The notes beneath the pieces were generated by a model. That model did no database searches. It had not been told where the DNA came from and was given only the letters and a program-made list of their open reading frames with translations. Below, piece after piece: positions 6,236 to 46,900 of a stretch of 64,000 nucleotides of DNA (position 1 is the stretch's first letter; the number at the start of each line of letters is the position of its first letter). This DNA comes from Ophelia neglecta (lineage: Eukaryota): contig OZ260663.1 of the NCBI GenBank assembly GCA_965285935.1, forward strand, positions 3,348,001 to 3,412,000. The letters run 5' to 3'. Position numbers and translations under genes: made by a program.

Positions 6236-6249
6236 AGATTTACTGACTT

Positions 6250-15368: not shown

Positions 15369-15400
15369 TTAGCAAATCGCCCATCTTGATACCATAGAAG

Positions 15401-18687: not shown

Positions 18688-21600
18688 GGCTGTGGAATTA
18701 CGTACGCTGGAAGCAGGCGTGTTATATCGAACAGGTCGATTCATTCAGCTGTATATACGCAGCAAGTGCTATTTTTTGTGTGCTGCGCTTGTTTCCTGTT
18801 CCGTGTGATGGCGTTTAACGAAGGTGTATTTCCTACGTAAAATGGTTAAGCTCCGGGTAAAGCTATAGAAATTTGTGTGTTATAATCTTAGACAACACAC
18901 GCCATTGGAGAAAAACATTTACTGCGGTGGTACAGCATAAAGTATTTTTTTTTAAAATTTCAAATGTTCTAATTATTGCTATTTCCAAAGGACGGTTTAC
19001 TACGGTTGCGCATTATTAGATACACCGGGTCATTACCAGCGGGCAACAATATAGTAAAAAAGATGTATTATCGTAAAAAAGTTTAGTGGCCTTGCTAGAA
19101 AAGTCCCCTGCTCGAAACGACCTGGGACCCTTCTTTTGAGCCATCTGGATTGATGAAACGGTAGGGTATTTTATTCTATAGTTCATCTCACGATCTTAGT
19201 ACAATGCCTGTGATATATTATCAACATTTATAAACTGTTTGTATCATTCACTTATTTATAATTTTTTCTCTAATTTCAGATAAATAAAAATAAAACAAAT
19301 ATCTGTGCAATTACCTCCCGAAACACATGTATAACTGCCTCCTCCCCCCCCCCCCCCCCCCAAGGTTCTAGCTGTGTGATGGGCTCAGGGGGCTGTTCTG
19401 AATCGGCAGAAGCGCGAACGGCGAACGCGGACCTCCAAAATTTGTAGCATTATGGTAACGGCCTATGGTAACTGCTACAGCGAATCGCTCACATCCTGCA
19501 CAGCTGGATTAGTCTGGAAGTTGAAATAATCACACCTTGAATGACAACTAATTGCAGGCCTCGAAATAATTTGTTAAAAGCTTGGCAGCATTATTTCCGT
19601 AATCGATAACCACCGGCACAACCAAAGCGGGATTGCCCAAATCGGCCACGGACAAAATCAGCCATGTCGACACTATATATATGTTTCTATTTGCGGCAGC
19701 TAGGCCTGAGTCGGTAGTGATTAAGGGATTAAAATTTCTATCCAAATTCGACCCACAAAAGTTAAATGATTAAGGGTTTATAATAATTATGGGTGACAAA
19801 TCATCGGGGGTGAGGGGATCCATCCAATACTTGATGGCACCACCTGTTCTGATTGGGGCTTACGAAATTATTAACATTAATTAACTGTATTTGGGGAAGG
19901 AGAAATGTGGCACCATCAGGTAGATATGAAATATGCAATCCCATAGTGGTCCAATTATTTTTAGTGGTAATCGCATGCCTAATAATGCAGCTTCATCAAT
20001 CATCATTTAGGGGGTTAATTAGTGATTTGATACAAGAAGGATTTTAGGGGGAAAGTCTTCTTGACCCCCCCCCCATCCATCAAATCACTAGCCCATCCCT
20101 GCTGGTTTTAGCGACTAGCCCCCCCCCCCCCCCCCCTACTTCATTAATGTGATTAATTTCCAGTCAGTGATTGCTTGATAATTTCGTGGCAGTCCGCACT
20201 GTCATTACATGATAGGCCTCCTATATTATTTGTCAATGCCAGAGATTACAAGTCCCCCATCTTCGAGTGCCATACGTAGTCGCCGTACATACTTATTTTA
20301 TTTCTATTATCTGAGTTTAGAAAGCAATATGACATGGGAATGAGCAGTAATATATATATATATTTTAAATTCTCGCGATCTATCTGGCGGTAAAATGACC
20401 ACAAGTTAGTTTTTACGCCCTCCAAGACCAAAACAACGTGTCCCGCCATGTTTGGTGTTGCATACGTAGCGTGACACTCCACGGCAGATTATCCTCAATG
20501 TGTCACCACATTGCTTGATCAATGAATCAACCTTTTTTTGCCCGTCAGAAACCCAATCATGCTTCTAGTGCACTGTAAACTGGGGCTAGTCTTTGATTGA
20601 AAACTTTTTACATTACATGTATGATGCCTACGAAGCAGGCCTATTATATCAAATATGTCAATTAGCTACCAGTTTGTGAGGGGGGGGGTCTATATGCACT
20701 TGTCACCTTTCTTGTTCCTTTTTGTGATAAGGGAATAAAATAACACTATAGGTATATTTTTTACTTTTATTTATTACAATTTTCACCTTATCAAAGTGAA
20801 TGTCAAACATTTCAATCCGCTTGCCATACTATTACTACACAGATGCTGCCAGGTCACATCACTACTTTTTGTTTAAAATACATTCTATAAAGTTTTGGAA
20901 CAGCATATTAAAAAAACAACTTAAATAACACATAATTGAGCACAATTATGTGTAACACATAATTGAGCACAATTATCTGTCATTTGTCATGTATCAAGTA
21001 TTAGCTTTCTGTTTCTTGAAATGTAATACCAACCTTATTGCTCTTGTTTGGTCCGTATCCCGTGCTGTCGTCACTAGTCTCAAAAACAAGGTAGTCATTG
21101 AACCTCTGTTGAATAACATAAACATAAATCATGGGCAAATTATATTCTTTCCACAACTATTCCACATTAAAAAAAGTTCAAGACAATGTTTTACAGCTTG
21201 ATACATGACTTCTCAAACAGTAAGTCAAAAAGGCTTTTTTTAGATTATGTCATGTTTGAAAAAAAATTATGTAGCCTGCGGTAGGCCTATATATTAAGCA
21301 CATGAGGCATTTAATGTTACCTTTTTCATTACAATACAAGTGTGAATTTACCTTGTCATTTGCTTTAGGGTTTCTTTTAGGGTATCTTTTTTCTGTTTCC
21401 TTGATTCCATGGTGAAATAAAGACAGCAGATTATGTTACTGAAATTTGTGTACCATTTTATTTTTTCAATTTATCTAGTTTTTATGGTTTTGGTCTACTA
21501 TATATATAACTTTGCAGCAAGCCTGTTTTGACCTCCAGATTTTACAAATAACTAATATGCAAATTCTAGCATTACTGACATACAGATCTAAATGTGCCTT

Positions 21601-21959
21601 TACCTGGGTTGCTTTGCCATAATTATGGTCTTCTGATTGTGATAACATAAACTCTTCTGTTTTATAGAAAAGAAGATCTATATATCTGTTAAGAATGTTC
21701 ATGCCAAGTACAATAAGACGGCCTTTATCAATCAATCCATGGATGAAGAAAACACCTTATAATATACAGTTCCTATCAATGTTGACCCATTGTAAAGCAT
21801 CATTTAGAGCATCTGCCCAAAACTTGATTTGAAGGGTTTCTCGGCTTTTAACACGATGTATACATAACAGGGCCACACATTTGGGGAGAAGTCACAATTT
21901 TATCCATTCGACCATTCCCTTTTTAGTACCATATGCTTTATTACAAATGGACTACTTTT

Positions 21960-23894
21960 ACATGTTTTAGGCAATTATCTCTCCAAGGATACAGCCTTCC
22001 CTGTTCGCAAGGTCTTCAGCTTCACTAGCTGAAACAGCACGCCCTGTCATTCCATCTAGTAAGATCCTATGAAAAAAATCGAATTTTTTATTGTTAAAAC
22101 TTTGATTGGAAGTAAGTTGTATATTAATGCAATAAATCTCATGGTGTAAATCCATTTACATAATTCATTTACCATGTGTTATCTTCAAAGCAGAGGTTCC
22201 TGTAATGTGAATTGCCTTACAGGCAGCCTGCGTACAACACAAAAAGGTCTCCCATGTTGCCAGTTAAAAATTCCTCTGAGAAGCACATGGTCTTGCTCAG
22301 TTTAAGGTTAGGATCTTTTACTCTGGATTTGATGTCAATTACTATAAATTCTCCAACCTCAAACGTGAAACGCTGGTCATAAGTTGTCTACATATGTAAA
22401 AAGATAGGTTTGATGACAAATGAATAGTACAAGGCAACTGAGAGAAGTGTAAGAACTGATAGGGTTGCCTTTTGATGGAAGGCATATTATTTCAAAAGGG
22501 CCAATAAAATTTGAGCAGTTTTGTAATGAGAAACAAGAATTTTAAATCTTCCAGGCCCTGCTGATAACTTCAACACCGGAGTCCACAGGGGCAATATACC
22601 TAGGTGTCTCATGTTAAATACACTTTTTGATTAATTGACTACACTAAACTAAAAGTACAACCCATTGGCCAATTATGGTTGTGCCCATTCATACATCCTT
22701 ATAAAAGAACTGTTTATTTATTAACGATACCTCAGTTTGTTGGTCGAAATATCTTGGTCCCTCCATTGACTTCAGAATTGCTTCTCCGACCTCGGTGCCT
22801 TCTTTGTCTGCCACCACTTGGTGTGTCAAAAAAGCTGAATTGCCAGAGTGAATGAAGTTCGAACCAAGTTATTTTTATTTCTGGGCATGACTGCATTACC
22901 TTATGGCTACCTGCATGTGTGATTGGTATCTGAGATTAGTTTTACCACCATAAAGTTTGTAACAGTTAAAACTATTATATTGAAATTGCCATAATGAATG
23001 GTACTTGAAAGATTTAATTGCTTAGAATATTGACTTTATCTTTAGGTGATGTTTATGAATGCCTTCTACGTTATAATCTATTGAATAGCCTTCAGCAATC
23101 ATACATGACATGTTGACCACCTTCTCAGCACAGGGATATTTTGCAACATCCCTCACAAATGTCTTGCTTATTCCTGCATGCAAATGTATGTGACTGTCAT
23201 AGAAAGATAAAGTAAGCAATTTGTTCTGTCATGTACATATTAATTAATTAATTCTTTCTCAGAATGCATAATACTTTACTAATACACCATAACCTGTTCT
23301 GACTTCCTCTATTTCAAGAAGTAGGTTTTGTATAATTTTCTGGTAAGGTTCCCCATGCATCTTGAAATTCAGCAGTTGCTTAATCTATAGCTTTCAGGAT
23401 GTTGCTCACTTGGCCCATGTACAGTTCTTTGAAAACCTGAAAATAATTAATTATTCAAGATTTTAGTTTTGTTAAAATTTGTTTTTTTTGTGTTGGTTTA
23501 CATTAACATTTATGTAACAAAAATGTTGTATGCATCCCTAATTATTATGCAAGTACTAGTAGCAAGAAATGACACTCAAATGCCATACACTGATTATATT
23601 TTAAGGAATTTATCACTTATTTGAGTGTCATGACTACCTTAAAATTACAGGTAATTGAATTGAACAGGGAAGTAATTTATAGGTCCTGGGTATAATAGCT
23701 ATTTTTTACCGCATTCTTCTGGTTGCCACTTTCTGTCATTTGGGCTGCCTTTATTAAATTTTTCATTTGGTGCCCGAGGTGGCCCACAGCAGCCTGACAA
23801 GTTCATGAAAATGATCTTGTCTCATGAGGATGTTCATGACAGCTGCCAAATAGCACTTCCCATTGTCGCTGGGGAATTTTGTCTTTTTTCTCCA
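21960..23894 (-). pseudogene. USP/C19-like cysteine peptidase domain (C-terminal part of the integrase gene)
   Basis: Exon 23894-23710 DNGKCYLAAVMNILM (Cys 23853-23855); exon 23436-23294 EFQDAW; exon 22387-22173 LFVLYAGCL*GNSHY...NT(W) (His 22205-22207); spliced in phase to exon from 22066 (W)ILLDG...GCIL. Confidence 0.6.
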
Positions 23895-24115
23895 CTGAAA
23901 AAGTGTTTTTGCAAAAAATGAATGATGTTTTAGAAATGATACTTATTTCTAGGGCTGACTATTTTCATATTAACTGCAATAGATCTAGATCTATACAGTA
24001 GGACTGAGCACACTTGCTCTTGATTGTAGATGCCCAGAATTTCAGAGACTGCCCAAGTTTGTCATTGATTTACAAGAAAATTATCTTACTTCGATCTCTG
24101 CTGTCAAAAGACATA

Positions 24116-24160
24116 TATTATAATTATAATTATAATTATAATTACAATTATTATTATATA
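24116..24160. repeat. (TATAAT)n-like simple repeat
   Basis: tattataattataattataattataattacaattattattat. Confidence 0.8.
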
Positions 24161-25538
24161 TATTCACACATACAATTTGTTGGAATAACTCATTAGCAAA
24201 TATGCCTATAAAATGATAGGATTTGCTGTGTCACCTAGGTGCTGGTCTTGTGCATCGAACCTTAAATTTCTCGCTGCTACTTTCCTTGCATGTTGCCGTA
24301 CTGGAACCTGGAGTGTGTATTTCTATTATATATCAGTTTGCATTGTATTAAATGAACATAAACAAGTTTTTTTTATTAGAAACCTGCATAATCAAAACGA
24401 ACCCTGCATGACATATATCACATCACGTCATAGCTGTCAAAACACTTTTTGACAATGTCTGCCAACAGCATTCCTTAATAGCTAGCCTAAAAATGATAAA
24501 TCGGTACTACAAAATGTCATAAAATGCACATAAGTAAATGGCTAGATGGCTGATATCGCAAGGGTTGTGGAGCTGAGCACCAGCTCGGCACACAAACATA
24601 TTTTAATGTTCACAAAATGTAATAGATGTATAACATGTTAAAGCCATTTTTAAAATGTGAAGGTTTAAGGAACCTTCTTTCATCCTTTTTTATTGAACCA
24701 CTAACTTGATATATGTAGACGGTACAGTTGGCAATATACAAAATATACCCAACTTAAGACTTGAAACCACATAGTGCTTATGTGCCCTTAAGCTCTAAAA
24801 ATCGAACATTGCTGATTAGCAGCTTCCACTTGCAACAATTGGAAGCTTAAGGTCCCTTCATCATTTAACTGTTTCATTGATTAATAAAGGGTTGCTTTAC
24901 CTTTGAAAAAAATTCTTCTGCTCACCACAGAGTTAAGTAACTGTTTGGTTGTTCTAATTTTATTTTCTTCTACTAGTTCTAGTGGTGACAGGCGCAGTCT
25001 ACTACTTCCCACAACGTCAATTATTCGTACTGGCATATTCTTCATACTTGCTTTTGCTCTATCCCCTTACCAAAAACTGATGCATTGTTTGTGCATTGAT
25101 TTAGCATTGGATTGGTGGCATTTAAATGCAAAATAGCATTTAAATGCTTTTGTTTCAATGGTTTTGTTACTGGTGTGGATCAAGGCATTGAATTAGAAAA
25201 AGCATTGAAAGAGCATGTCCACGGAGCGAAATATTTAAAATAGCATTTAAATGCTTTCATTTCAATGCATTGAAATGCCAAATCAATGCCTTTATGTTAA
25301 TGAGGTATGCATTTCAATGCAGAAACAATGCTTACATTTCAATGCATTGAAATGCAGAAACAATGCTTATATTTCAATGCCAATTCAAGGCATTTATGAT
25401 AATGAGGTTTGCACTGTTTGGATTCAATGCAACATACCATGCTACGTATATATGGTATACATCGAAGTTTTATATAAAGTTCACCTTAGCAGTCAAAACG
25501 AAACACAAATAAAAGTTTGACATACCAAACAGGACCTT

Positions 25539-27550
25539 AACCACATCAAGGTAAGAACCCACTGTCTTAGTTTGGACCAGTCTTCTGCCCAGTATGAGGT
25601 TTCCAGTGAGTTCATACCTAGGGCTCTTCCTGGGTATAAAAAGAAGAGACTTGGCAGTGGGTTCTTACCTTGACGTGGTTGCCCAGCTTGTGCTTTACAA
25701 AACAGAACCCTCACTGACAGAGTTTATAAGGTTTATTAGTTACATGTTACAGACAAGTACATGGATGTATATGGAACTTTCTTTTATCTATTTATTAAAC
25801 AACTAACCTTTTATGTTCCTTTACTAACACATTTTAGTCAGAAAAACAGAATGACCCACATGGTGTCTATGTGTCGTTAAGCCCCAAAAATCCAAATCCA
25901 AATACAGACAAGTACATCAAACCAGATCATGATAACATGAAATTACAATTTCACTCATTGTTTCTTCTGGAGGGTTACCCTGGCATTTGTAATTTTGTTT
26001 TGGAAGATCACACGAATACTGCTGGGGTCCTCTTCAAACCCCAGCTATATTGCTTTGGCATGCATGAAATCTGAAATGACAATAATAAATCATACAAGTT
26101 GGATGTACATTGATTTCCTTCTGTGACTTGACAATATATAGAGGTCTATGTAACATGTGTGAAGAATCATTGTTCTGAAAGGAGTAAAAACTGGTTGATC
26201 GAATTAATATTGTTCATAGTTTCACTTAGTGACGGTTGGATATGGCTGTTCCAGAAATTGTCCTCAGGGTGGCGTGAGCAGCAACGACTTTGTTGTGCGG
26301 GATAGGGGGGTTAAATTGGAAAAAGCCTGTCCGGCACATTGGGGAAAAATGGAAAAGCCTATCCGGCGGACAGGGGTGTATTTGAAAAAGTGTGTCCAGG
26401 GTAGGGGGAGGGGTATAAAACAACTCATGGTGGTGATTGGTGCGAGGGTATAGCCTACTTATAGGTTCGAGTAAATCATTTGTGATGTGTCTAAGGGGCA
26501 GAATTACCGTTGTTAATTATTCCATATATTCTGTTGTTCGGTACACCGCTGACTGTGTTTCACTTGCACATCCATACATTCTCCAGCAAGAATATATTTG
26601 CGACTTTGTTCAATCACTAGTCAGTCATATATACCTTTACCCGGTGCGAACAAAACCCAAACACTGTCAAAGCAGCAATACGCAGTTCCGGCAGGGGCAG
26701 TACGATCTAAATTCAACTTTCTCACAGTTAAAACAAGTTGCCGCCCATCCCTCCCTAGGACAATTCTCTGGAACCGCCCTGATTCATAAAAGGAAATATC
26801 TTTTGAAATAGTTCATCTGCTTTCTACCTGTAACTGCACTTTTTTTCAGGACATCCAAGGAATCATTTGCTCCTTTAGAGAGAGCCAGTTCTTCTACTGA
26901 GAAGACTAAGCCTATCACCTTATTTAATAGATACCTAAAAAAATATTTGAAAAGTGTTGAAGACTGATGTATCAAAGAGACAGCAAAACTTGATTCAGCT
27001 TTTCTGGTTTAATTTGACTGTAGATCTAGTTGGAAGCGAAGTTGTGTAGCATATCACAAGCCCTTATGCATGTCAAATCACCACAAATATAATGAAGCAG
27101 TATGAAAATCTTACGCTCGCAACCGGTGATTTGGTATAATCTTTTACGGGTAAAGAGACATGATTATATTAACATTGATTCTTCAAATTATATTTAGGGC
27201 TGTTCCAGTAATTGTCCCCAGGGAAACTCTCCGGGATATGGGGGATGAATTGGAAAAGCCTGTCTGGGATATAGGGGGTAAATGCAAAACCCTGTCCGGC
27301 AGATGAGGGTGTATTTCAAATAGTGTCCGGGATAGGGCGAGGCTGGACTTTCAAACACATGTCTGGAAATCAGGGTTAAACCAACATATAATTTAGAATA
27401 GTCACGGTTGTTCTGTTTTGTAAAGCACAAGCTCGGCAACCACGTCAAGGTAAGAACCCACTGCCAAGTCTCTTCTTTTTATACCCAGGAAGAGCCCTAG
27501 GTATGAACTCACTGAAAACCTCAAACTGGGCAAAAGACTGGTCCAAACTA
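25539..27550. repeat. Inverted pair of a ~140-bp repeat (25568-25708 and 27410-27550); first copy has a local 26-bp inverted repeat
   Basis: The two copies are reverse complements with a few mismatches. AACCACATCAAGGTAAGAACCCACTG (25539-25564) is inverted at 25655-25680. Confidence 0.85.
25955..26934 (-). pseudogene. BEN-domain gene remnant carried by the CACTA element
   Basis: Exon 26934-26828 YLLNKVIGLVFSVEELALSKGANDSLDVLKKSAVT splices in phase 1 to exon 26070-25955 DFMHAKAI*LGFEEDPSSIRVIFQNKITNARVTLQKKQ*. Confidence 0.65.
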
Positions 27551-29646
27551 TGTTATTGAAGCAACTTAACTATTTTAGCACCCCACCCAGGCACAAAAGG
27601 CTGTGTAAAGCATATAATGAGTGATTGCGTAAGTTTTTGTTCAATCCACAGGACAATGTTCTGGCAAGAACAAATAGCCTAATGGTGTTTTTTCCCCTAG
27701 TATCAAAACGTTACTCCAACACTGGATGTATTATCATCCGAAAAGGGGCAAGTTTTTTGAGAAGGAATGTTTTATTGTTTTTGACTTTTTCACAGCAAAC
27801 AAAAACAACTGAGTCTCAGAACTCAAGTAAAGCTGACTTGCATCATAGTGGTGATAATGACTTGATTCAGAGTCACCTAATTTTTCCAAGCTGGTTTCCA
27901 TTCCTGCAGTCTACTCTGACATAATTATTCCCTCCATGAGGCAATAGTAACTTTTCCAATTGAAACTTTATTGCCTGTGCATTCTGTAACTGCATCTAAG
28001 CGGTAGCTTGTATATATAGGCCAACAATTTATTGAGTACTTGTATATTAATCATTAGTTAGTGGTCATTGGTTGAATAGATCTACAGCATTCTTTCTGAG
28101 GGCTTGAATTGGAAGGGTAAACTATCTATAGTTTCTCAAAATGAAGCTTTTTGCAATATAAAAAAGAATAACTTAGTAATTTTGAAATGGAAATTAATAC
28201 TGAACATATGGATTTAGTTTTTTCTTTCAACATCATGACAAGAAGTTTTTTCAAAATCACACCAGCAATATAAACTAGCTCTACAGAATCAATGCTTTGC
28301 TGATCAATCCAGGCCTTAATGTGAAAGCAGTTTATCCATGATTCCAGGAGCATTGTTTCCATCATCAAAACAATGCTTTCTGATATTTCAATGCTCATTC
28401 AATATATTTAAACCATTGATTTCATTAAAAAAAATGCCTTGAAATATTTCAATGCTCAATCAAGGCTTTTGAAACATTGATTTGGCATTTTAATGCTGTT
28501 AAAAGCATTTAAATGCCAAATCAATGCATTCTTTTTGGTAAGGGTCTCTATTTGGTACTTTATAATATCCTGTGTCTCCTTTTGAGATAACCTAAGCAGA
28601 ACAATACATATAAAAATATAATTTATTTCCTGTTTTGTGAAGTTCCAGGTGATTATTACTATTAATCTGTCTTGTCTGTGCTTCTTTCTTTTGTTCTGCA
28701 GTTTCCAGTCTTGTTGCCGCATTCTCTGCGTTGAAAACTGCTGCAGGCGTAACTTAGCTCCATACATTATGTGAATCCTCCCTTGAACAAAAAAAAACAT
28801 AATTCAGAAAGTGAAGTGTCTGGCAGGGTAATTATTGAAATATTTCTATATATACTTATTTATTTTTACCCCTGAAATTGGGATGATCATCAGTCTATTC
28901 ACGAAGGTGATTTGTACAATCATTTTCAATGGTGTACCAAACAAATTTCTACCCATTAAATGTTGGTTCTGGCCTGCCATCCACGAGGAGTTCCTCATAT
29001 ACACTGATATCTGGCTCCATGGTTCTTACATCCTTGCTCCTCTCAGCGGCTGGTTGCCACACTTCAATTGGAGCTAAATTTCTACCGCCTCCACTGAGGG
29101 AGGAGTGGATCCGGTTGCTGCAAGGTAGTAACTAAATGCAATTTGTATGAATCAGACTACCCCCCTCTTTGGCTATTCCATAAAATTTCCACATAATGCA
29201 AAATAATGTCAAGAGCAATGTACACGCCTTGTTTGGTAGCAATCAGATAAACTATGTGGAAAAATAAGTGTTAAATTTTGGAAATACCAAAGCTGACACA
29301 ATAAAATAGAAAAAGGGCAATAACTATATCAAATTTGGTATGATCAACATGGCTATCTACTGGACATGGCTGGCTAGCTGGGCTTCTGAGTTAGTCCGAG
29401 GGAATCCATTGAATTTAAAGTTTTATAACTGCCATCCAAGCCTAACATTATAGGTGAAATATTCTGTTGGATATCTGGAATGTACAAAATGGTTAATTTT
29501 TAAATAAGGTGGTGCTACAGAACATATTTTCTCAAATTTGTGGTGTCAGATAGGATATCATGGAGCGGCCATGTTGAATATATGGCCATGTGAACTCGTT
29601 CAATAGCTCTGGTTGGTACTTCGCCACAGTGATTCTAGCAAATTAG

Positions 29647-30465
29647 ATGGAAACTCCAGACATTGGTGCAGGGAAACGCCAAAGGAGCCAACTGACCCCG
29701 GATTCTGGTGACTCTCAAATAGGTCTCAACAAAATAAGAAAAAATTTAGAAATGTCTTCAGAAGCCGAAAGTCTACAGGTGAGCAGTCTGGACCTTAGCC
29801 CGGTGGAAGAAATTGTCTCCAGCCATGTAGAAAGTATGAAGAAACAACAAGACCAGTTCAGAGGTGAGATAATAGAAGCAGTTAAAAACCAAATACAGAA
29901 ACAATTAGATGTGCTGGAGAATAGAATAGTTACTTTGGAGCAGAGAAAGGATAACATTGAGAAAGAAAATGATAGATTGAATACAGAAGTTAAGACTCTG
30001 AAACAGAATGTGAAAGAGTTGATGTCAAAATCTATAGAGAACAACCAGTATTCAAGGAAAACAAATGTCAGAATTTTTGGTATGAAGGAACAGGAGGAAG
30101 AAAACTGCAAATCTGAGGTCCAGAAAGTATTTAAAAAGCTAAAAATAAAGAGTGGTGAAGAATGGATAGATGTGGCTCATAGAGTGGGCAAAATGCCAGG
30201 AGATGAATCAAATGAAAAACCAAGGGCTATGATAGTTAGAATGGTCAGTTTTGAATTGAAGGAGAAGGTTATGAAGTCCAGGAAAGAGCTGAAGGGAACT
30301 GAGGTGTCTATACAAGACGATATGTGCTGGGAATATATGAGATATATAGCCTATCTCAAGAAGAAAGAAGCAGTTCAGGATGTCTGGACATGGATGGGAA
30401 AGGTGTTTGTCAAATTGAAAAGCACCGGAAATAAAAAGAAGCTGAGGTATGGAGAAGAAATTTGA
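29647..30465 (+). CDS. L1/Tx1 ORF1 protein (coiled coil plus RRM/Transposase_22-like)
   Basis: 272-aa open ORF; NQYSRKTNVRIFG, IDVAHRVG, PRAMIVR, VSIQDD, WTWMGKVFVK. Confidence 0.9.
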   Translation: METPDIGAGKRQRSQLTPDSGDSQIGLNKIRKNLEMSSEAESLQVSSLDLSPVEEIVSSHVESMKKQQDQFRGEIIEAVKNQIQKQLDVLENRIVTLEQRKDNIEKENDRLNTEVKTLKQNVKELMSKSIENNQYSRKTNVRIFGMKEQEEENCKSEVQKVFKKLKIKSGEEWIDVAHRVGKMPGDESNEKPRAMIVRMVSFELKEKVMKSRKELKGTEVSIQDDMCWEYMRYIAYLKKKEAVQDVWTWMGKVFVKLKSTGNKKKLRYGEEI

Positions 30466-33565: not shown

Positions 33566-34344
33566 TGTAATACACCAAAACAAACATTGTAAACATTGTA
33601 CATTGGTCAACAATTCCATTGTAATGTAATTTGACTCGAGGTACAACACAATAGGCTGTGTAATACACAGGGTTGTATATTGAATGTATTGAAAGGTATT
33701 TGCTATTGTGTGGGGTCTTGACCACTTGACCACTAGTAGGCAGTGTGCACAGACTGCCTTGGTGTAGCATGCTTACAGCAGGACACACATTTCAAGCTAT
33801 CAACACATTTCAAGCTGTCAACACTGTTTTTGACAAATTATGTAGCCCCCAAAGAAGGTAAAGTAGCCAAATTAGTTTATTCTTACATATGGAGTTTCTG
33901 ACAATACTGTAGCAGTAAATTTGATGATATATTCATTGTGTATTTCCTTTAATTTAAGTCAGTTTGTAGCTTCAAATTTATTTGTTCTCCTAGCTGTGTA
34001 TATGCCTGTATAGGCCAGTATAGGCTACACTGTACAGCACCATAGGCTCATTACTGGTAATACTGGTACCATTGGTAAAACATAATAGTTAATGCTAGAA
34101 TTCACATTAATTTAACTAAAATATCCATTATTAGTTTCTTTTGTGTTAAACATAGAGTATATAGTCTGGTACATTATTACATTTTTTTTTTTACAGTTTA
34201 ACCGTCATTGCTGATTGCAAGTGTTCAAGCATTAGGCACCTCTAAACAAGAATTGACATTTGTACTGTATTTAACTGAACTATCAATACACTAATATCAA
34301 GCAAAAGGACGTGTTTAGCTTTATTGGGGCTGTCAAGGGTTACA
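33566..34344 (+). repeat. 5' LTR (779 bp)
   Basis: TGTAATACACC...AAGGGTTACA, near-identical to the 3' LTR. Confidence 0.97.
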
Positions 34345-34445
34345 TAAAGTTAAACTTCTTTTGTGATTGAAAACTGCTTCCAGGCATCCTACATGTGACA
34401 ACTTCAGTGATTCTGTGTTTTCAAGCTTCTTGTTGTACATTCACA

Positions 34446-37400: not shown

Positions 37401-40400
37401 TTTGAATCAAACCACTATAGTTTGGACATACCGTTCAAATGTAGACCACCTCAGCTAAGAGACAACAGATCTATGGCTGAACATCGGCTACGCCTTCTTG
37501 GCAAGCGCCTAAATCGAGATGACACGCTCAAGAACAAATATATCACTGGCATACATGAACTCTTGGACAAAGGCTATGCTGAACCAGTGTCTCCCGAGGA
37601 AATGAAACGCCAGGATGGCGGAGTGTGGTATCTCCCTCACCATCCTGTTTTCAACTCCAAGAAACCTGACAAAACTAGGATTGTTTTTGACTGCAGTGCG
37701 AAGTTTTGTGGCCAGTCACTTAATGATGCAGTTTATCAGGGTCCAGATCTCACTAATAACCTCCTGGGAGTACTGTTGAGATTCAGACAACAACCTGTTG
37801 CCTTTATGGCAGATGTCGAAGCAATGTTTCACCAAGTGTTGGTGAACAGGCCTGATCGTGATGCCCTCAGATTCTTGTGGTGGAGCGATGATAATCCACA
37901 AAATGCTCCTGATACCTACCGGATGACAGCGCATTTATTTGGTGGTATTTGGTCACCTAGCTGTGCTAGTTACGCTTTGTGCCGCACTGCCATAGACCAC
38001 AGCAACAAGTGTGCCTCTGATGCAGTGACTGTGGACACTGTATTAAGGAATTTTTATGTGGATGACTGCCTAAAATCCTTAGAGACAGAAGAAGCTACAA
38101 TCCATTTGGTGAAACAACTCAAAGTTCTTTTAAAGGCTGGAGGCTTCAAACTGACCAAGTGGATCAGTAATTCTAGGGAAGTTTTGCGATCTCTGCCAGA
38201 GAGTGAATGGGCCAAGGAGATGAAGTCTCTTGATCTCGACAAGGATTTCCTGCCACTGGAGAGAGCTCTCGGTCTCCTTTGGATGGTGGAGATCGACACA
38301 TTCACATTTGATGCCAAAGTTAAAGACAACCCACTGACTCGCCGGGGACTGCTAAGTACAATGAGTTCGGTTTATGATCCCCTCGGCCTGGTCTGTCCTT
38401 TCATCATGGTAGCCAAAATGTTATTCCAGAGGCTCTGCCGGGAGAACATGGGATGGGATGATCCTATGCCAGCTGAAGTAGCATCCCAGTGGGGCCGGTG
38501 GTTGGAAGATTTGCCACAGTTGCGCAGGTTTCAGCTTCCAAGATGTGTCCAACCCAGTTCAGGTCATGCCACTATGTGCCAACTACACCACTTTTCGGAT
38601 GCATCCGAACTAGGGTTTGGAGCAGTAACTTACCTTCGCACAGTGGATGATCAGGGTAGAGTTTTCTGTATTCTCCTCATGGCCAAAGGAAGACTGTCAC
38701 CTATTAAAACACTTACCGTTCCACGTCTGGAGCTGACAGCAGCTGTTGTATCCACTCAGCTTGATGCCATTGCCAAGCAACAGATGGACATTGAGCTTGA
38801 ACCTTCCAACTATTGGACTGACAGCCAGATAGTACTTCACTACCTGACAAATCAAGACAAAAGATACCAGACTTTTGTTGCAAACCGACTCGAGAAGATT
38901 AGACTACAGTCTGATTGTTCACAGTGGAAGTATATCAGCACAGCTCAAAATCCAGCTGATGACATCTCTCGCGGAATGACTGCTACAGAACTAATTGCGA
39001 ACAGAAGATGGATTGAAGGACCACATTTCTTAAAACTCCCTGAGTCACATTGGCCAAAACAGCCCGACCTGTCAGGAAACAGTTTGACATCAATACCAGA
39101 GATCAAGAAAGACACTAAAGTGTATCATGTTGTCAACCGCAGCCAGTGTGATATCATAGCAATGCTGGCTGCTCATCATTCTGACTGGTACAAGCTTAAG
39201 AAAACTGTAGCTTGGTTACTTCGCTACAAGTCTTTCTTGTGTGACAAAGAGAAAACACCAACTGGTCCCCTGACAGTGAAGGATTTGCACGAAGCAGAAT
39301 CACAAATTGTAAGATATCTTCAGCTCAATGTAAATCCTGATAGCATCAAGCAGCTACAGCCTGTCCTCAACAGAGATGGCATTTTATGTGTGGGCGGTCG
39401 AATTTCTCAGTCAGAATTACCAGAGAGAATCAAACATCCATGGATTTTACCTCTGGGACCTGTCTCAGACATGATAATCCGACACTATCACATTGTCACA
39501 GCGCATTCTGGTGTTGAAAGAACCTTATCAGAACTGAGACAACACTTCTGGCTCATCAAAGGGAGACCTTCGATCAAGTCCATCATATACAAGTGCATTC
39601 CCTGCAAGAAGATGAAAGCCAAACCACAGTACCAACTCATGGCGGAATTACCAGCCGACCGGATCCTTTCAGGTGTGAATCCATTTGAGCATGTAGGTGT
39701 GGACTTCTTCGGGCCATTCATGGTAAAAAGAGCCAGGTCAACCGTCAAACGATATGGGTGTGTTTTCACTTGTCTCGTTATCAGAGCTGTCCACATAGAG
39801 ATATGCCACACATTGGACACAAACTCATTCATAGATGCACTTCAGCGGTTTATCAGTAGACGTGGTAGTCCAAGGCTCATTAGATCGGACAATGGCACCA
39901 ATTTTGTTGGCGCGGAGCGAGAGCTGCGGCAATCCATTGAAGAATGGAATCAGGGCGCCATCAATGACTTCCTTCACCAAAAGGCCATCCAGTGGAATTT
40001 CAATACACCTACGGCATCTCATACAGGTGGTGTGTGGGAACGTCTAATTAGGTCAATCCGCTCAACACTGAAAGGCCTAATCACCCAGCAGACCTTAACT
40101 GATGAAAGCCTTCTCACCCTCATGTGTTTGGTGGAGGGAATTCTAAATGGGCGTCCTCTCACCAAGGTATCGGATGACCCCAAAGATGACAACCCACTTA
40201 CGCCTAACCATCTTCTACTGCTCAGAGCAGGACCACAAGCACCTCCTGGAATCTTCAGCAAGGATGATGTGTACCGCAGAAGATGGCGCCAAACTCAATA
40301 TCTGGCGGATATCTTCTGGAGACGCTGGACCAAAGAGTACCTTCCTATACTTCAGCTGAGACAGAAGTGGTTAACACCGAAAAGGAACTTCAGGCCAGGT

Positions 40401-40625
40401 GACCTGGTTCTGGTTACCAATGAACAGCTTCCTCGTAATCAGTGGCCTCTTGGGCTCATCCTCAAGTCATACCCAGGAGTGGATGGACGAGTTAGATCTG
40501 TTCAACTAAAGTTCCAAGGTTCGGTTTATAATAGACCTACCAACAAACTTGTGCTCTTAGAGGGAATTTCCCAAGAAAGTGTACTATCCCAAGGTGAACC
40601 AAGACAAGTGACTCTTAATAACTGA
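34446..40625 (+). CDS. BEL/Pao Gag-Pol polyprotein (~2060 aa)
   Basis: DUF1759-like gag (FDGNPINYWSF), three Cys/His knuckles, protease LDNCS, RT YVDD, RNase H FSDASE/WTDS, integrase HSG..CIPC, VDFFGP, SDNG, WERLI. First ATG at 34446. Confidence 0.97.
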   Translation: MSFVRQQDQAKKNRKGLKTRITKVLKELSEIPMVETNFTTILKKTKQLSEAIVQFEDACADFHTMLIKDEDLQKSDEYLKQMVEKYVTEIRKYEDWLQATKSTVQNRISSDGSLRTPDSSQTRFKEIRHESRTPTGRSDREGHDEEIDSVSDAGASNVSITSSVMAAQRLKAEAEEMELRLRKERQEMEDEKQAFENKQRQEEARLNNMRLEFELQQRSLQLEMKEREIEYKEKVLNMAAEDNKTVRFLPEPPQARSTPSSVSKGKRRPPSIIPTNMYTEDNRPHDQYPEQSNMPSRGSPPTDSPPGQQGRPNQIDPTMQFMQQILNNSITNQREIAEFLGNTTTVLQQTLQQTMVQNHQNQQTLVQSLHLPKCDLQTFDGNPINYWSFIHAFEENVHIESLGNAGKLSRLRQYCTGQAKKVIESCSVMPPDQGYQRARQLLEERFGNAFTVAEAWLEKIEKLPDITNQKALQTYADELQNCKQTLKSMGYISELDNSRSLLRLAQKLPRDLQKSWSKKVVEIKVQKTRRPKVKDLVKFVAVSAEAARDPVFGEMFMSNDKFKQQGKKKQRIRGGKDKDKKGDMTFITQTTPPQSPPQSPPQSQHEQSISAAAAAVATPTRPPLKCPYCQAQHILFGCYQWKSLPVRDRLNFVQSKHLCVNCLKPHRTSECRKPTVCSIEGCGLKHTKFLHLPRQRPPDATLNSQSNGQTSQLTLQTTPQASASQNSGPQANQTPPLNSSTQSQPTEAPTSTPTYATYKVTGAGVGKVAMPIVPLKIRGKDSEFIQVYAMLDNCSTQTFCSEQLADKLKLEGEQKTIYLTTLEEERKPIGSRQVALEVTDLEENHTISLNNVATKTNLNINNDLLVTNEDIHNWPHLRDIQLPDVQCQEIHLLVGQDNADLFYPEERRKGQVGEPYAVKTIFGWTLHGPLKKGHKESYSHFTDTDNTLNLQVQRFWEIDNTNFEDQLTYSLNDKKVIQMWNDSLVFESNHYSLDIPFKCRPPQLRDNRSMAEHRLRLLGKRLNRDDTLKNKYITGIHELLDKGYAEPVSPEEMKRQDGGVWYLPHHPVFNSKKPDKTRIVFDCSAKFCGQSLNDAVYQGPDLTNNLLGVLLRFRQQPVAFMADVEAMFHQVLVNRPDRDALRFLWWSDDNPQNAPDTYRMTAHLFGGIWSPSCASYALCRTAIDHSNKCASDAVTVDTVLRNFYVDDCLKSLETEEATIHLVKQLKVLLKAGGFKLTKWISNSREVLRSLPESEWAKEMKSLDLDKDFLPLERALGLLWMVEIDTFTFDAKVKDNPLTRRGLLSTMSSVYDPLGLVCPFIMVAKMLFQRLCRENMGWDDPMPAEVASQWGRWLEDLPQLRRFQLPRCVQPSSGHATMCQLHHFSDASELGFGAVTYLRTVDDQGRVFCILLMAKGRLSPIKTLTVPRLELTAAVVSTQLDAIAKQQMDIELEPSNYWTDSQIVLHYLTNQDKRYQTFVANRLEKIRLQSDCSQWKYISTAQNPADDISRGMTATELIANRRWIEGPHFLKLPESHWPKQPDLSGNSLTSIPEIKKDTKVYHVVNRSQCDIIAMLAAHHSDWYKLKKTVAWLLRYKSFLCDKEKTPTGPLTVKDLHEAESQIVRYLQLNVNPDSIKQLQPVLNRDGILCVGGRISQSELPERIKHPWILPLGPVSDMIIRHYHIVTAHSGVERTLSELRQHFWLIKGRPSIKSIIYKCIPCKKMKAKPQYQLMAELPADRILSGVNPFEHVGVDFFGPFMVKRARSTVKRYGCVFTCLVIRAVHIEICHTLDTNSFIDALQRFISRRGSPRLIRSDNGTNFVGAERELRQSIEEWNQGAINDFLHQKAIQWNFNTPTASHTGGVWERLIRSIRSTLKGLITQQTLTDESLLTLMCLVEGILNGRPLTKVSDDPKDDNPLTPNHLLLLRAGPQAPPGIFSKDDVYRRRWRQTQYLADIFWRRWTKEYLPILQLRQKWLTPKRNFRPGDLVLVTNEQLPRNQWPLGLILKSYPGVDGRVRSVQLKFQGSVYNRPTNKLVLLEGISQESVLSQGEPRQVTLNN

Positions 40626-40841
40626 GATAGCTTGGCCAGCCTTGCCGTGTGACCTTCTGATGACGACCTTTGAAATGACTACAGGACAATGATCATATAT
40701 ATATATAAGTATTTTTTTTGTTACTTCTCTATTATTACAGCTCTAATTATTCAAATTTCAACATAGTATCCGACTGACATAACTATTGAGTTTGTTTTGT
40801 TGTTTAAAGATCTTTGTAATGCTCAGCATTAGGGGCCGGTA

Positions 40842-41621
40842 TGTAATACACCAAAACAAACATTGTAAACATTGTACATTGGTCAACAATTCCATTGTAA
40901 TGTAATTTGACTCGAGGTACAACACAATAGGCTGTGTAATACACAGGGTTGTATATTGAATGTATTGAAAGGTATTTGCTATTGTGTGGGGTCTTGACCA
41001 CTTGACCACTAGTAGGCAGTGTGCACAGACTGCCTTGGTGTAGCATGCTTACAGCAGGACACACATTTCAAGCTATCAACACATTTCAAGCTGTCAACAC
41101 TGTTTTTGACAAATTATGTAGCCCACAAAGAAGGTAAAGTAGCCAAATTAGTTTATTCTTGCATATGGAGTTTCTGACAATACTGTAGCAGTAAATTTGA
41201 TGATATATTCATTGTGTATTTCCTTTAATTTAAGTCAGTTTGTAGCTTCAAATTTATTTGTTCTCCTAGCTGTGTATATGCCTGTATAGGCCAGTATAGG
41301 CTACACTGTACAGCACCATAGGCTCATTACTGGTAATACTGGTACCATTGGTAAAACATAATAGTTAATGCTAGAATTCACATTAATTTAACTAAAATAT
41401 CCATTATTAGTTTCTTTTGTGTTAAACATAGAGTATATAGTCTGGTACATTATTACATTTTTTTTTTTTACAGTTTAACCGTCATTGCTGATTGCAAGTG
41501 TTCAAGCATTAGGCACCTCTAAACAAGAATTGACATTTGTACTGTATTTAACTGAACTATCAATACACTAATATCAAGCAAAAGGACGTGTTTAGCTTTA
41601 TTGGGGCTGTCAAGGGTTACA
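40842..41621 (+). repeat. 3' LTR (780 bp)
   Basis: Differs from the 5' LTR by two visible substitutions and one T in a homopolymer run. Confidence 0.97.
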
Positions 41622-43684
41622 ATATTGCAGGTTTACACATTGCAAATGAATTATTTGACACAGGTCAATATGCTGATGACACTTTCTTGTTTCTGGATGG
41701 TTCACAGAAATCCCTTAGAGCAGCAATTTCTATCTTTGACAGGTTTGAGAAATGTTCCGGTTTAAGACTAAATAAGGATAAAACAGAAGTTGTTTGGATA
41801 GGGCATAATGCCCATTTACAAGATAAGATATGTGCGGACTTGGGACTGAGGTGGGTTTCCAATTTTAGACTGCTTGGAATTAATTTTACTCAAAATTTGG
41901 AAGAGATGGAAGATATAAATTACTCGATAAAACTCATTGAAATACAAAAGATATTAAAAGCTTATGGAAAACGAAACTTAAGCCTGTTTGGAAAAATCAC
42001 TGTAATCAAGACCCTGGCTATTCCTAAGCTTGTGCATGTCTTATCGGTTCTCCAAGCACCAAGTAAGAGGTTCCTTGATGAGCTTAAAGGTACATTTAAT
42101 GCTTTCGTTTGGAATAATGGAAAGCCTAGGGTGAAAAAATGCGTTTTGTCCCAGAGTATTGAAAATGGTGGGGTCAAAATGACTGACTTGGACTTGTACA
42201 TTGCTTCCTTGAAAATAAGTTGGGTAAAGAGATTGTACACTACTTCAGGCTCATGGCAGAGTTTGTTTACAAGTATCGTAAAAGAGACAAGGACTTGTGA
42301 TATTTGGAAATTAGATGTAAAATCATTGAATTTGGTGGGGGGAGTTAAAAATAAATTTTGGGAGGAAACACTTCTATCATGGAAGATGTTTTTAAATATT
42401 GTTGAAGAGAATGTTCAAGATATACTTGAAAGACCACTTTGGAATACATATTTTGTTAGAAATGAAAACTTGAATTTATTGGCCCCTAAGCTTTATGATC
42501 GGGGATGTTATATGATTAAACATTTGTATGATATTGAAAGTGGTAATCTTTTGTCATATGAACGGTTCATAAATAAATTCCACATACGAGTTAACTATAT
42601 AGATTATCTGTCCTTAATATTAAGTGTTCCCACTGAATGGAAATATATGATACAGAACATGATAAACCGGGACAATTCAATTGTAAATGAAACCATTGTT
42701 GGCAAGGTAATATCTTATGAAAAGGTGTGTAGTAAAGTGTATTGGACTTTTATAGAAGGGAAGGAAACTGTATATCCAAATTCTTGGTCTAAATGGAATG
42801 AAAAATTAGGAATATTTTTGGAATTTAAAGATTTCAAGAAATACTTCATGTTGCCCTCTAAGAGCACTAGAGAAGCAAAACTTAGAAGTTTTCAGTATAA
42901 GATATTACATCGCTTCCTGCCAACAAATAAATGGCTATATCTGTGTAAGATAAAGTTGGATAATAAATGTACCTTCTGTAAATTGGAGGTTGAGACTCTT
43001 GAACATCTATTTTTTCACTGTCCATGTGTATCTGATCTATGGGAACAGTTGAAAACCTGGCTTCACCCAAATATTGTATTTGTACATCCTATACAGGAAA
43101 AGCATGTTATGTTGGGTTATACAGGTGTTGGTGGAAATATAGAAACTGAATGTATTAATATTATCTTTTTGTTAGTAAAGAGATACATATACATTGTAAA
43201 ATGTAAAGAGGGGAACTTGTCTTTTGCACAGCTGATATCTTTTGTTCGAGATTACTATGTTACAGAAATGCAATCTCTAAGGTACATGTCAAATGGAAGG
43301 CATAAACTGAAAAAAAGGTGGACCATTATCGAGGAGAAGCTGCTTGCAACAGGTTAATATCCAGATAGATGAATATATGTCAATAAACTTTGTGTTATAA
43401 TGTTTTTTGTACAGCTGATATCTTTTACTCGAGATTAACATGTTACAGAAATGCAAAATTTTGTTGTACAAATTCATGTAACCATCTCTGTATTATAATG
43501 TGCTCGGGAAATAAAAAAAAAAAAAAAAACAAAAAAAAACATGGCTATCAGAAGTGCCAAGGTTTCCATACTCATACTGCCTGATTGATAATTTTGAGGG
43601 GGAACCTATTGTGAATTCATGGTCGAAGGGCCAAAATTGTTTCGAATTAACGTGGAGGGGGCCAACATAATTAAGTTTGACTTA

Positions 43685-43975
43685 GGGACGGACCATTAGA
43701 TATCTAGGGGGGGGGGGGGGCAGAGAACTTGGCTCTAGTTAGGAATTTTTTTTTCATGAATAAAGTTGACAGAAAATTTTTTTTCACCACAGAAACTGCC
43801 AGATTATTTTTTTCCTCTGTATGATATATTTTTTTACTTAAAAATAATAGGCAGATTATTTTTTTTTTATGTATTTTTCTGGCAGATTATTTATTTTTGA
43901 GAAAATCAAAGCCAGAAAATTTATTTTCATTTTTTTCTGCCCCCCCCCCCCCCTAGATATCTAATGGTCGGTCCC
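43685..43975. mobile_element. PIF/Harbinger-type MITE
   Basis: TTA TSD and ~40-bp TIR GGGAC(G/C)GACCATTAGATATCTAG(G)nCAGA. Sits immediately after the GTAA splice donor of an integrase exon. Confidence 0.9.
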
Positions 43976-46900
43976 TTACTTGTATTCAAACACAGCTTTT
44001 TTTACCGTTACTTCAATATTACTCTCGGGTTCTTCTATGACGACTGCTGTCAAAATCATTTTCAACGTCTGGTTGAATCTTTCGAATCGGCCACCAGTAG
44101 CCGGGTCTCTAGGTATTCCTCTTCGCATGAGTACCCCAAATTGTTTCATGGTGGCACTAAATTATAAACCAAAATCAGTACTATGCATGATAATTATTTG
44201 AGCTGTTTCAATAGACAATGAAGTGCTGATACATTATTCATTTACTTAGACATACACAAAAGCTTTCCCAATGAACTGGGATCCATTGTCTGTCTGGACC
44301 GTCTCCGGTGTTCTACCCAAACTCCAGAATAGAGAGCAGAATATTGCGGCCACAGCTTCACTGGTTAGGGACTCCTTTGAGATGATATATGCCTAAGCAA
44401 ATCTGTGAAGAGAAGAAAGTGGTAAGAGTTATATGTTGAAAGGGTATTTATCCAGAATTGGCCATCCTTATTCCATAAAAAATATAAACAGAGCCCTCTA
44501 CTAATATAGCCACCTTTATTTATTTTTTAAGGAACAAATACATTTGTTGCATGTGTTCTTATCTTACCGACTGAAATAATCTAAGACAGTCAGTATCCAT
44601 ACAGCTTTTTTGGTCACCGGGTTTACAAACATTGTTAGATCTGACCCAATCCGCTCAAAGACACGATATATCCTCTGGGGCTGTCTGGCCACATGGCAGA
44701 CTGGTAGGTCCTATATAATTATGTAAGTTGAAATTATAAATATTATATAAAAATTAACATGATTATACAAAGAACTAAGGGCATTAGAATTAGAATTAAA
44801 ACAGGGTTGGATCCTGTTGATTGCATGATACAAAGATTAGGCTTATTCAAAACTGATTTTGAGCATACTTTTGCAATTTAGCCAATGGAAATAATGTCCT
44901 ATAAAACCATTTTCACCTTCATTGTGTTGCAGTTCTTCACCACGTCTAATACTGTCTGGTATCTGATTCCTGCATACATTGGAGCAATCTGCAGTCGGAA
45001 ACATGGCATGAACAGAAGGCAAAGGTTAATTAGTATTTTTCATGGTTGAAATTGTTTCAGTTTATAATTCAGGCTACATTCACTGCCCATTCCTCTGACT
45101 TAAAGAGGCCGCACATCTATGTTCCTTTCCTCAAATCAGTTCCTTTGTCAAATAGGCCTAACCGTATAACATTGACGAATGAGCCCTGAAGACGTAGTTC
45201 ATAACTGTTACAGTGAAAATCACTTCGCTTTTTTGTTGTTGCAGACTACATACATTTTTCAAATCTAGCGCACCACATGAAAAAAGTTTAATTACGTATG
45301 TTTTGTATAGGCCGTTGGTTCCTATATGGGCGTGCAGTGTGTGCTTCCTCTGCACTGTTTCTCGTACTTTGTCCTCTGGAACAACCTTAATGTTTGAAAA
45401 CATAACAAATCAATTGATACTGAAGTATTCTGTATCAACTTACCCGACAAACAGCCAAAAATATCATAATCTTTTTACAAAATTGACATCAGGGAGTGGA
45501 AAAAATTAGACACAATTATTGGCATAATAATGTTCCAACATTATGATATTGCAGGAAAAGAAAACTGACTTTCCATTGGTTTTGACCTGTCTAAAGAGAC
45601 CACTTGCCGATAAAGATTATCACTTGTTGAGTTCTTAATTAATTCATAAGTTTCACTGTATCTGAACAAACTCATCTCTTCACATCATAAATAAAGCCCT
45701 AGATATAGCAGTTTCCAAACCACTAACACTTCCCACGGAGTATTTGCAAAATGCAATAAGGGCTTGTACCAGTTCCTAAAGTTTTGGTGCCATTAGTCGA
45801 GTAGCTCTTGGTAATAATTAAAATTAAAGTGCAAAAAAACAGAATATTTGAGTCAGATTATGTTAACTGGGTTTGTCTTTCATTGTCATTTTTTGGAAAT
45901 TTCAATGTAAAATTTTGATTTTTAAGCCCATAATGCAACATTGCCACATGTGCAAGGTGCTAAATTTTGGTATGCTGTGCCCAGTCAAATTAAAGCTTCT
46001 GAGAGTGTCGAGGTGTTTATACCCTGATGTAAGGCTTATACTGTAGAATGTATTTTTTTAAATTGTGTTGTATATGATATGTTGGCTCTATTGTAATGAG
46101 TAACCATGTGATAATCTAGGCTTGCCTCACCTTATGCACTACTATGGGATATTAGTGATTTTGATTAATACAGTTTTTGATTTTTTTCATCCCAGCGCAT
46201 GTTTAGGCCAAGTAAATGACCAACTGTCCATTATACTTAGCACTCAAGAATTATACCTTGGTATTATATACTTGCAAGCCATTTATCAAATCATTTGGTT
46301 TCAAATATATAAACCTGGGTGTTGGATGGATAAGAAAAAGAAAAGTATGTTTTGTGGTTCGTTTAGAATATGACTTGAAGAGGATAGACCAACGATGGAC
46401 AAGTTTTCCTTTGTACTTCATGACATCATAACCAATTGGCTACCACACTTTATTAAGTTGGTGATTATTTTGTGATGAAGAAATACCCTATTTACTCTGC
46501 ATAACTGCTTTGTGTGTTTCTATATGTATTTGTTTGTTTATGTAGAGACAATAATTGAAATTGAATTAAAATTAAAATAAATCTTAAAATTTAGAAACAG
46601 CACAAGGACTCCAAAATTGTGTAAATAAATGGGTATAAAACCAAATATAAGCATAAAGGCTGGAGAAATGTGCTACAACTTGAACCTCACAACATATATT
46701 TTGAAAAGGTGCAAAATAAAGTATGTAATCCCAAATAATATGGATTAGGTGTTACTGGTAACACGAACGACCCTAAATTAAAATTTTATTTCATTAACCC
46801 CGACACTTACAATGGATTTGACATAGTTTTCCATCAAGATCTCTACAATCTCACTCAATGCAGAAATAAATGCTAGCAGGTGATATTTGTGGATTGTTAG

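Follow-up and report, generated by a model that had tools for sequence, protein, structure and literature searches.

A dead Ginger-like transposon in the Ophelia neglecta genome: a spliced transposase with a predicted USP-like protease domain, and an AAA ATPase gene carried by its relatives

Here, we describe a mobile element in the genome of Ophelia neglecta (assembly GCA_965285935.1), located in a stretch of 64,000 nucleotides (nt) of contig OZ260663.1 (positions 3,348,001–3,412,000). This whole stretch is called the window, and positions are relative to its first letter; labels such as C2, C7, C8, C12, C26 and C132 denote contigs of the same genome. A first-pass annotation of the window had proposed that the retroviral-type integrase of a DNA transposon, spliced from many short exons, is fused in frame to a cysteine protease resembling the ubiquitin-specific proteases (USPs), and open frames in three families bear this out. 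In the reading that we favour and regard as probable, the window holds a dead copy of a Ginger-like cut-and-paste transposon of ~23 kilobases (kb) that encodes an integrase–USP fusion and whose complete form also contains a captured AAA ATPase gene likely serving the element.

Evidence for the fusion comes from relatives of the window copy. Searching the genome at the DNA level for intact copies, as the first-pass annotation had suggested, uncovered a compact sister copy on C12 as well as partial copies on C2, C7, C8, C26, C132 and at C12:67.4M. The C12 copy, representing family A, is open over 18 exons, joined by 17 GT-AG introns into a stop-free frame of 762 residues in which an HHCC finger, a D-D35E core, an SH3-like tail, an acidic linker and a 279-residue C-terminal domain follow one another. 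The spacing between the second Asp and the Glu of the core, previously counted as exactly 35 residues, is confirmed in this frame. A conserved first exon precedes the finger, on the side where Ginger1 has a YPYY motif; in family A, it is situated 4.4 kb upstream, contains a start codon and is in phase with the rest. Searches with the integrase exon led to family B (three copies, 55% identical to A in that exon) and family C (two copies, 52%). Their stop-free fusion frames of 764 and 831 residues, respectively, use GT-AG introns throughout and repeat the phases of family A, with one additional intron in family B. A frameshift initially read in exon 13 of family B was dropped, as an acceptor further downstream yields an open frame.

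Identity among the three families amounts to 43–47% in finger and core and to 24–30% in the C-terminal domain. H-x4-H, CxxC and D-D35E are present in all of them, and exon 4 matches the Pfam rve profile; the GPY/F motif is missing throughout, the SH3-like exon keeping just the Pro at that position. Since 17 canonical introns give a stop-free frame of 762 residues and two diverged families repeat its phases, the exon chain is not a product of chance. Open relatives in A, B and C all read through into the protease exons instead of stopping before them. Three contig sets of unrecorded kind show the deletion of the C7 copy and no intron-type joints, and are uninformative on expression.

That the fusion gene belongs to a mobile element is evident from its borders. 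Five family A copies have a common 5′ end and four unrelated flanks. The C2 and C7 copies possess both ends, TGTG...CACA (TGT...ACA), with an imperfect inverted repeat of ~25 bases and subterminal repeat arrays, and these two of the three both-ended family A copies are flanked by perfect 5-bp AT-centred target duplications; a 700-bp derivative with both ends has no target duplication. The C12, C2 and C7 copies are 99.7% identical, so family A must have moved recently. Its full length would be ~24.7 kb (19.7 kb in C7 plus 5.0 kb deleted there), or ~23 kb without a nested insert. Family B spans ~20 kb; three copies whose flanks are unrelated have the same 3′ terminus (TCACA), and one also has a 5′ end to match. 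For family C, a nested derivative shows a 4-bp CCGG duplication when compared with the empty site, and the 3′ end of the large copies is approximate. Taken together, ends, target duplications and near-identical dispersed copies identify a mobile element, and ends plus duplications imply cut-and-paste transposition by the integrase. A whole-element comparison across families, made without a profile scan, revealed only the transposase–USP and AAA genes in common; reverse transcriptase-like pieces are seen in individual families, where they resemble nested insertions. Three related termini elsewhere (C1:5112211, C1:1953473 and C1:12856366; TGTGCTG..., ~76% identical to the family A 3′ end) point to a further family, as far as their sequence goes.

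Within the window, the sister copies can be aligned from 18530 to 47699, so the interval 21000–45800 originally assigned to the element was too small. The claim of more than 15 short minus-strand exons with matching phases is borne out: 16 of the 18 exons of the open C12 copy were mapped onto the window, with exons 9 and 10 deleted, 11 and 12 cut and 8 split. Seven of the ten motifs quoted in the first-pass annotation were found directly on the minus strand, whereas the other three cross exon junctions or the insertion; the motif FQDAW had to be given up as the product of a frameshift, the open copy reading FQDVGE. The gene had also been described as reading across a 14-kb L1/BEL nest in an intron and across an insertion in an exon, and both were located with their target duplications, between exons 5 and 6 and in exon 8, respectively. 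Four in-frame stops, two frameshifts, two nine-base deletions, two mutated splice sites and the loss of linker exons make this copy dead, as had been stated. The exon lines below rest on mapping from the C12 copy, with further support in brackets.

18530–18846, minus strand: 3′ end of the element including subterminal repeats; ~9 bases are lost at the outer edge (90–94% identity to the C2 and C7 ends that are flanked by target duplications)
20840–20953, minus strand: point at which ~6 kb, including the FIGNL1-like AAA ATPase gene, have been deleted internally (C7 homology jumps from 10425 to 16561 in gene-oriented coordinates)
21970–22066, minus strand: exon 18, with the catalytic Asp (W-ILLDG, spanning the exon junction) and the final strand of the USP-like domain (profile alignment)
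22173–22387, minus strand: exon 17, His box (LYAGCL..NSHY), one in-frame stop (motif, profile alignment)
22731–22834, minus strand: exon 16, USP-like domain
23105–23198, minus strand: exon 15, USP-like domain, 9-nt deletion and mutated acceptor
23304–23436, minus strand: exon 14, QD box, one stop and one frameshift (profile alignment)
23710–23894, minus strand: exon 13, Cys box (GKCYLAAVMNIL), one frameshift (motif, profile alignment)
24090–24307, minus strand: remnants of linker exons 11 (24307–24218) and 12 (24114–24090), exons 9 and 10 deleted upstream (C12 comparison)
24901–25063, minus strand: second part of exon 8, SH3-like tail of the integrase
25064–28544, no strand assigned: 3.48-kb element splitting exon 8, with CCC...GGG ends and a 2-bp target duplication, presumably of CMC/CACTA type (C12 comparison)
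28545–28591, minus strand: first part of exon 8
28667–28781, minus strand: exon 7, one stop and mutated donor
28953–29117, minus strand: exon 6, NRIHSS...EVWQPG (motif)
29358–43537, plus strand: L1-like retrotransposon of 14.2 kb that has a poly(A) tail and sits in the intron separating exons 5 and 6, flanked by an 11–12 bp target duplication (C12 comparison; RVT_1 and Exo_endo_phos_2 matches)
33566–41621, plus strand: BEL/Pao long terminal repeat (LTR) retrotransposon nested in the L1-like element, its 780-bp LTRs 99.6% identical (repeat comparison, domain matches)
43684–43976, no strand assigned: small inverted-repeat insertion, also located between exons 5 and 6 and lacking in the C12 copy (C12 comparison)
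43980–44156, minus strand: exon 5, catalytic Glu, RRG.P.DPATGGRFERF (motif)
44256–44402, minus strand: exon 4, TDNG with the second catalytic Asp, one stop (the C12 exon matches Pfam rve, E 9e-5)
44568–44710, minus strand: exon 3, first catalytic Asp, FERIGSD (motif)
44917–44988, minus strand: exon 2, CxxC of the HHCC finger, one Cys removed by a 9-nt deletion
45296–45385, minus strand: exon 1, H-x4-H of the HHCC finger
45386–47699, minus strand: long first intron; homology ends at 47699, which corresponds to the donor of the first coding exon; that exon and the 5′ end are missing in the window (sister-copy comparison)

The C-terminal domain very probably adopts a USP fold. Despite their 24–30% identity, the three families keep the Cys, the Asp and Glu of a QD..E box, a His-Tyr and an Asp/Asn-Gly. 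When aligned by hhalign in global mode to a USP profile built from host USP pieces and 120 database matches (nearly all USP12/46), the domain reached 95.2% (E 7.8e-9, 261 columns), as opposed to at most 0.56% for 40 column shuffles and 0.07% for the reversed alignment; the His box alone reached 92.2%. The Cys, QD, His and Asp boxes are in register, so the order of boxes typical of C19 peptidases suggested by the first-pass annotation is recovered and a Cys-His-Asp/Asn triad aligns with USP12/46. With a profile of host USPs only, B and C rank 1 and 2 among 906 sequences. Across all pieces, UCH was the sole protease match in Pfam, while OTU and Peptidase_C48 gave no match on any piece; it was also the sole Pfam match of the stop-free Cys-to-QD stretch of family C (E 0.093). 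The domain would likely cleave ubiquitin. A lone His-box exon at C2:98505351–98505497, 53% identical to family A and with no integrase exon nearby, is, by this resemblance, the remnant of a fourth family. The host genome also contains an intronless, open USP12/46 catalytic domain at C9:40410095–40411081, possibly a retrocopy.

Downstream of the fusion and on the same strand, all three families carry an intron-containing AAA ATPase gene of the meiotic clade in the whole-element comparison; from the window copy, it has been deleted. In family A, an open frame of 377 residues over nine exons has FIGNL1 as its best match among solved structures (E 1e-48). Compared with the single host gene on C8, its AAA part shows 90% protein identity, the same exon boundaries and unalignable introns, with a synonymous divergence (dS) of 1.8 and a ratio of nonsynonymous to synonymous divergence (dN/dS) of 0.03, and it retains the FVPP site and the KW pore loop. 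The family B gene has katanin p60 as its best structural match, and its exons are 76–84% identical at the DNA level to the host katanin gene; two of the three copies contain a stop, and no host exon upstream of the AAA region was matched. Family C holds a divergent member, at best ~45% identical to the host paralogues tested, that keeps Walker A, Walker B and the KW loop. In a tree of 148 columns projected from tblastn pieces, some of them leaning towards the query and with rough support values, A is sister to host FIGNL1 and B groups with host katanin, from which at least two captures follow as far as such a rough tree allows. Elsewhere, two Vps4-like genes lie in tandem at C5:74.20–74.23M; Walker A is altered in the second.

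How would such an element work? The HHCC/D-D35E/SH3 part would bind the subterminal repeats, cut at the TG...CA ends and insert with a stagger of 4–5 bases. The fused protease would delay degradation by removing ubiquitin, either in cis from the transposase itself or from other proteins that sit at the break. Protection from degradation has been proposed for Helitron deubiquitinases, which are active in vitro (PMC9741609), and by analogy the protease described here may shield against ubiquitin-driven turnover. The AAA hexamer would pull protein off the DNA after cutting or joining. FIGNL1 uses the FVPP site and the KW pore loop on RAD51, which it removes (bioRxiv 2024.07.16.603765). Since family A keeps both, the substrate there would likely be RAD51 at the break, with the spent transposase complex as an alternative. 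Of all steps in the scheme, this removal of RAD51 or spent transposase by the ATPase has the least support.

Several observations weigh against this reading. Splicing is deduced from the frame and its conservation across families. None of the family A copies seen is complete, since C12 lacks the 3′ end and C2 and C7 are internally deleted. The AAA gene is dispensable in some copies, its start codon was not found, and the host exon with FKTA, which together with FVPP marks the RAD51-binding region of FIGNL1, was not detected in the family A element. As for the protease, Pfam UCH matched no single exon, and the score on family C was 12.8 bits against a curated cut-off of 23.9 (half a domain, with an intron still inside). 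The Cys-box half alone scores 11% in hhalign, family A is not distinct from shuffles under the host-only profile, and the ESM atlas search with the family C stretch, although headed by UCH clusters, was weak (recognition 2148, below 2300). The family A His-box exon matched zona pellucida clusters in the same atlas. This match was rejected as chance, as were the only structure matches that single exons and small profiles gave, to galectin-3, a serpin and an estrogen receptor, because catalytic residues are lacking or scores lie near noise. A single-exon AlphaFold model (predicted local distance difference test 46) was too poor for a fold search. Also unfavourable are changes in the active site, namely Ser or Phe in place of the oxyanion Asn at position −5 relative to the Cys, next to an invariant Asp at −4, and Gly instead of the second Asp after the catalytic Asp/Asn, due to which enzyme activity may be low or changed, and a dN/dS between the C12 and window copies of 0.62 in the protease part as opposed to 0.25 in the integrase, based on few sites.

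The same changes, together with a shortened His box and a fingers region in which CxxC zinc motifs were not seen, as well as the ratio of 0.62, would suit a USP-derived domain that is no working deubiquitinase and instead serves to bind ubiquitin or chromatin, or to cleave a different target such as a ubiquitin-like modifier or the precursor of the transposase. We consider this improbable, given that all three catalytic positions are kept across families sharing about a quarter of their residues and that deubiquitinases of another class carried by transposons show activity in vitro (PMC9741609). Somewhat less improbable, though still unlikely in our view, is that the transposase–USP is functional while the AAA genes are mere passengers picked up at the 3′ side, their conservation stemming from selection in a donor species. 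Gene capture is common in integrase-related DNA transposons such as GingerRoot (PMC6839031), the window copy has lost the gene, and two of three family B copies have a stop in it. This account keeps some weight because a gene captured in another species would look conserved as well: a foreign FIGNL1 would likewise show saturated dS and low dN against the gene of this host. It fits poorly with three of three families holding the same small AAA clade, in the same position and on the same strand, from at least two host genes, and with the open nine-exon frame of family A. It also fits poorly with family C, whose gene is far from the host paralogues, yet has Walker A, Walker B and the KW loop intact.

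Very unlikely, by comparison, are ATPases that act on cell division or meiosis, through microtubule severing or control of germ-line recombination, rather than on transposition. Katanin is indeed a microtubule-severing enzyme, and different families took different AAA members. FIGNL1, for its part, removes RAD51 (bioRxiv 2024.07.16.603765). The upstream host exons left unmatched in B and the FKTA exon undetected in A point to a loss of native targeting, which speaks against such a role. Almost certainly wrong, finally, is the idea that manual exon-picking joined what are in fact two neighbouring genes, integrase and protease, or a domesticated host gene. The fusion is known from genomic DNA, the full-length protein being absent from the protein databases searched, but linker exons chain in frame with the same phases in three families, and ends, duplications and near-identical dispersed copies attest to mobility.

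Regarding classification, the earlier label ‘Ginger2-type’ holds insofar as this is a DNA transposon with an integrase; Ginger2 itself is not established, because Ginger1-like and Ginger2-like features are mixed. The lineage shows features of the Ginger superfamily (D-D35E with HHCC finger, TGT...ACA ends, inverted repeats and a short target duplication). It shares with Ginger2/Tdd the absence of GPY/F and the 4- or 5-bp duplication, and with Ginger1 the C-terminal cysteine protease, the introns and, in one family C insertion, the CCGG duplication. We therefore call it ‘Ginger-like’, as it combines both sets and lacks the GPY/F motif of Ginger1.

Ginger1 transposases likewise join an H2C2 finger and DDE core to a C-terminal cysteine protease and have introns, TGT ends and 4-bp CCGG or CCGT/ACGG duplications, but they end in OTU or Ulp1, contain 0–4 introns and belong to elements of 2.6–7 kb (Bao et al. 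2010, PMC2836005). Here, by contrast, the protease is USP-like, GPY/F is lacking, introns number 17–18 or more, elements measure ~20–25 kb, family A makes 5-bp duplications and a second gene encodes an AAA ATPase. Ginger2/Tdd elements resemble the present lineage in their H2C2 and DDE domains without GPY/F, their TGT ends and their 4- or 5-bp duplications, of 5 bp in TDD-4 and TDD-5 (PMC2836005, PMC10045372, PMC3575427). They differ in that no C-terminal protease is listed for Ginger2 in the accessible parts of these papers and in their published size of 2.7–6.7 kb; the perfect inverted repeat here is short and followed by repeat arrays. Transposon-borne deubiquitinases (OTU, VTD and UCH/USP) also occur in Helitrons, with capture of Pfam UCH in print for HLE2 Helitrons (PMC11417382, PMC9741609). 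Those elements are rolling-circle transposons without a DDE transposase, while the domain described here is integrase-fused and far more diverged. GingerRoot is a further integrase-related DNA transposon capturing host sequence, with a 6-bp duplication, mostly TA ends and 4–13 kb in length (PMC6839031). It carries gene fragments, as opposed to the open multi-exon ATPase domain found here.

Among bacterial transposons, Mu (with MuB and ClpX) and Tn7 (with TnsC) have dedicated AAA+ partners, and bacterial AAA+ transposition regulators bind target DNA. A DDE transposase and an AAA+ ATPase in one mobile unit are likewise found in IS21 as IstA and IstB (PMC11208146). In contrast, the ATPases described here are peptide-threading enzymes of the meiotic clade, derived from host FIGNL1/katanin, with a predicted role. 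Neither a Ginger–USP fusion nor a DNA transposon with FIGNL1 or katanin was found in the literature covered; Repbase entries, subscription papers and supplements lay outside this scope and may bear on novelty.

In protein databases, searches with the Cys-box exon and with the integrase exon profile returned nothing, a weak negative given that these searches were word-limited. A full HMMER protein scan yielded 17 matches at E ≤ 0.001. Of the 16 inspected, two resembled ordinary Gypsy-type integrases; the other 14 were short or exon-sized fragments, roughly half of which stop at one and the same intron position. None of the ten looked up carries a name, and none of the matches shows whether a protease follows. 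A metagenome scan and a scan of viral contigs added three and two short matches, respectively, of 11–22 residues. Given these exon-sized relatives in other datasets, the lineage probably has a wider distribution.

Eukaryotic cut-and-paste transposons are thought of as small, one-enzyme elements. The lineage described here is three to eight times longer than published Ginger elements, and its ~18 introns hide it from annotation based on open reading frames. With it, the cysteine proteases that occur as fusion partners of Ginger transposases come to include a predicted USP class. The presence of the same AAA clade in three families, from at least two host genes, points to a transposition step limited by the ubiquitin and repair machinery of the host. 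More tentatively, one might envisage an animal three-part machine in which an integrase with its own USP works alongside an AAA+ ATPase recruited more than once from the host FIGNL1/katanin clade to strip off RAD51 or spent transposase; if true, this would be a eukaryotic counterpart of ATPase-assisted bacterial transposons. As open frames for all three enzymes exist in this genome, two old questions can now be tested: why deubiquitinases are retained by transposons, and how transposition complexes of eukaryotes are disassembled.

The surroundings of the dead copy hold further mobile sequences. A second, canonical USP gene with introns lies at 53490–55290 on the plus strand (NQGNTCF, QEDASE, GHYTAY...WQHMND). 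A larger element, extending to 62975 and taking in this gene, was considered and rejected: no family terminus was found beyond 47000, and the sequence at which five other copies end does not occur in the window. The gene is part of a dispersed repeat with copies at C9:31.50M (96%), C1:31.5M and C1:146.3M, and immediately upstream of the C1 copies, on the other strand, lies a DDE_Tnp_4-like remnant; the gene may belong to another USP-carrying transposon unrelated to the Ginger-like one. At the cut-off point of the Ginger-like copy, a decayed element (47700–51000), which we take to be of Harbinger/ISL2EU type, contains a YqaJ nuclease on the plus and a DDE_Tnp_4 transposase on the minus strand. 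A long inverted duplication links 244–18530, where it is interrupted, with 62980–68682 beyond the window end (~86% identical); its inner ends are exactly the clipped 3′ end of the element (18530) and 62980, and aberrant transposition is one possibility for its origin. Fragmented frames at 10200–17400 (minus strand) presumably represent a Helitron-type Rep/helicase with an OTU-like piece at 16788–17339, although four pieces of this region gave no Pfam match at E 0.01. Lastly, the end of an L1/CR1-like element holds a 1002-bp tandem duplication with an exact core of 300 nt (1758–3760 and 2065–7000, minus strand).

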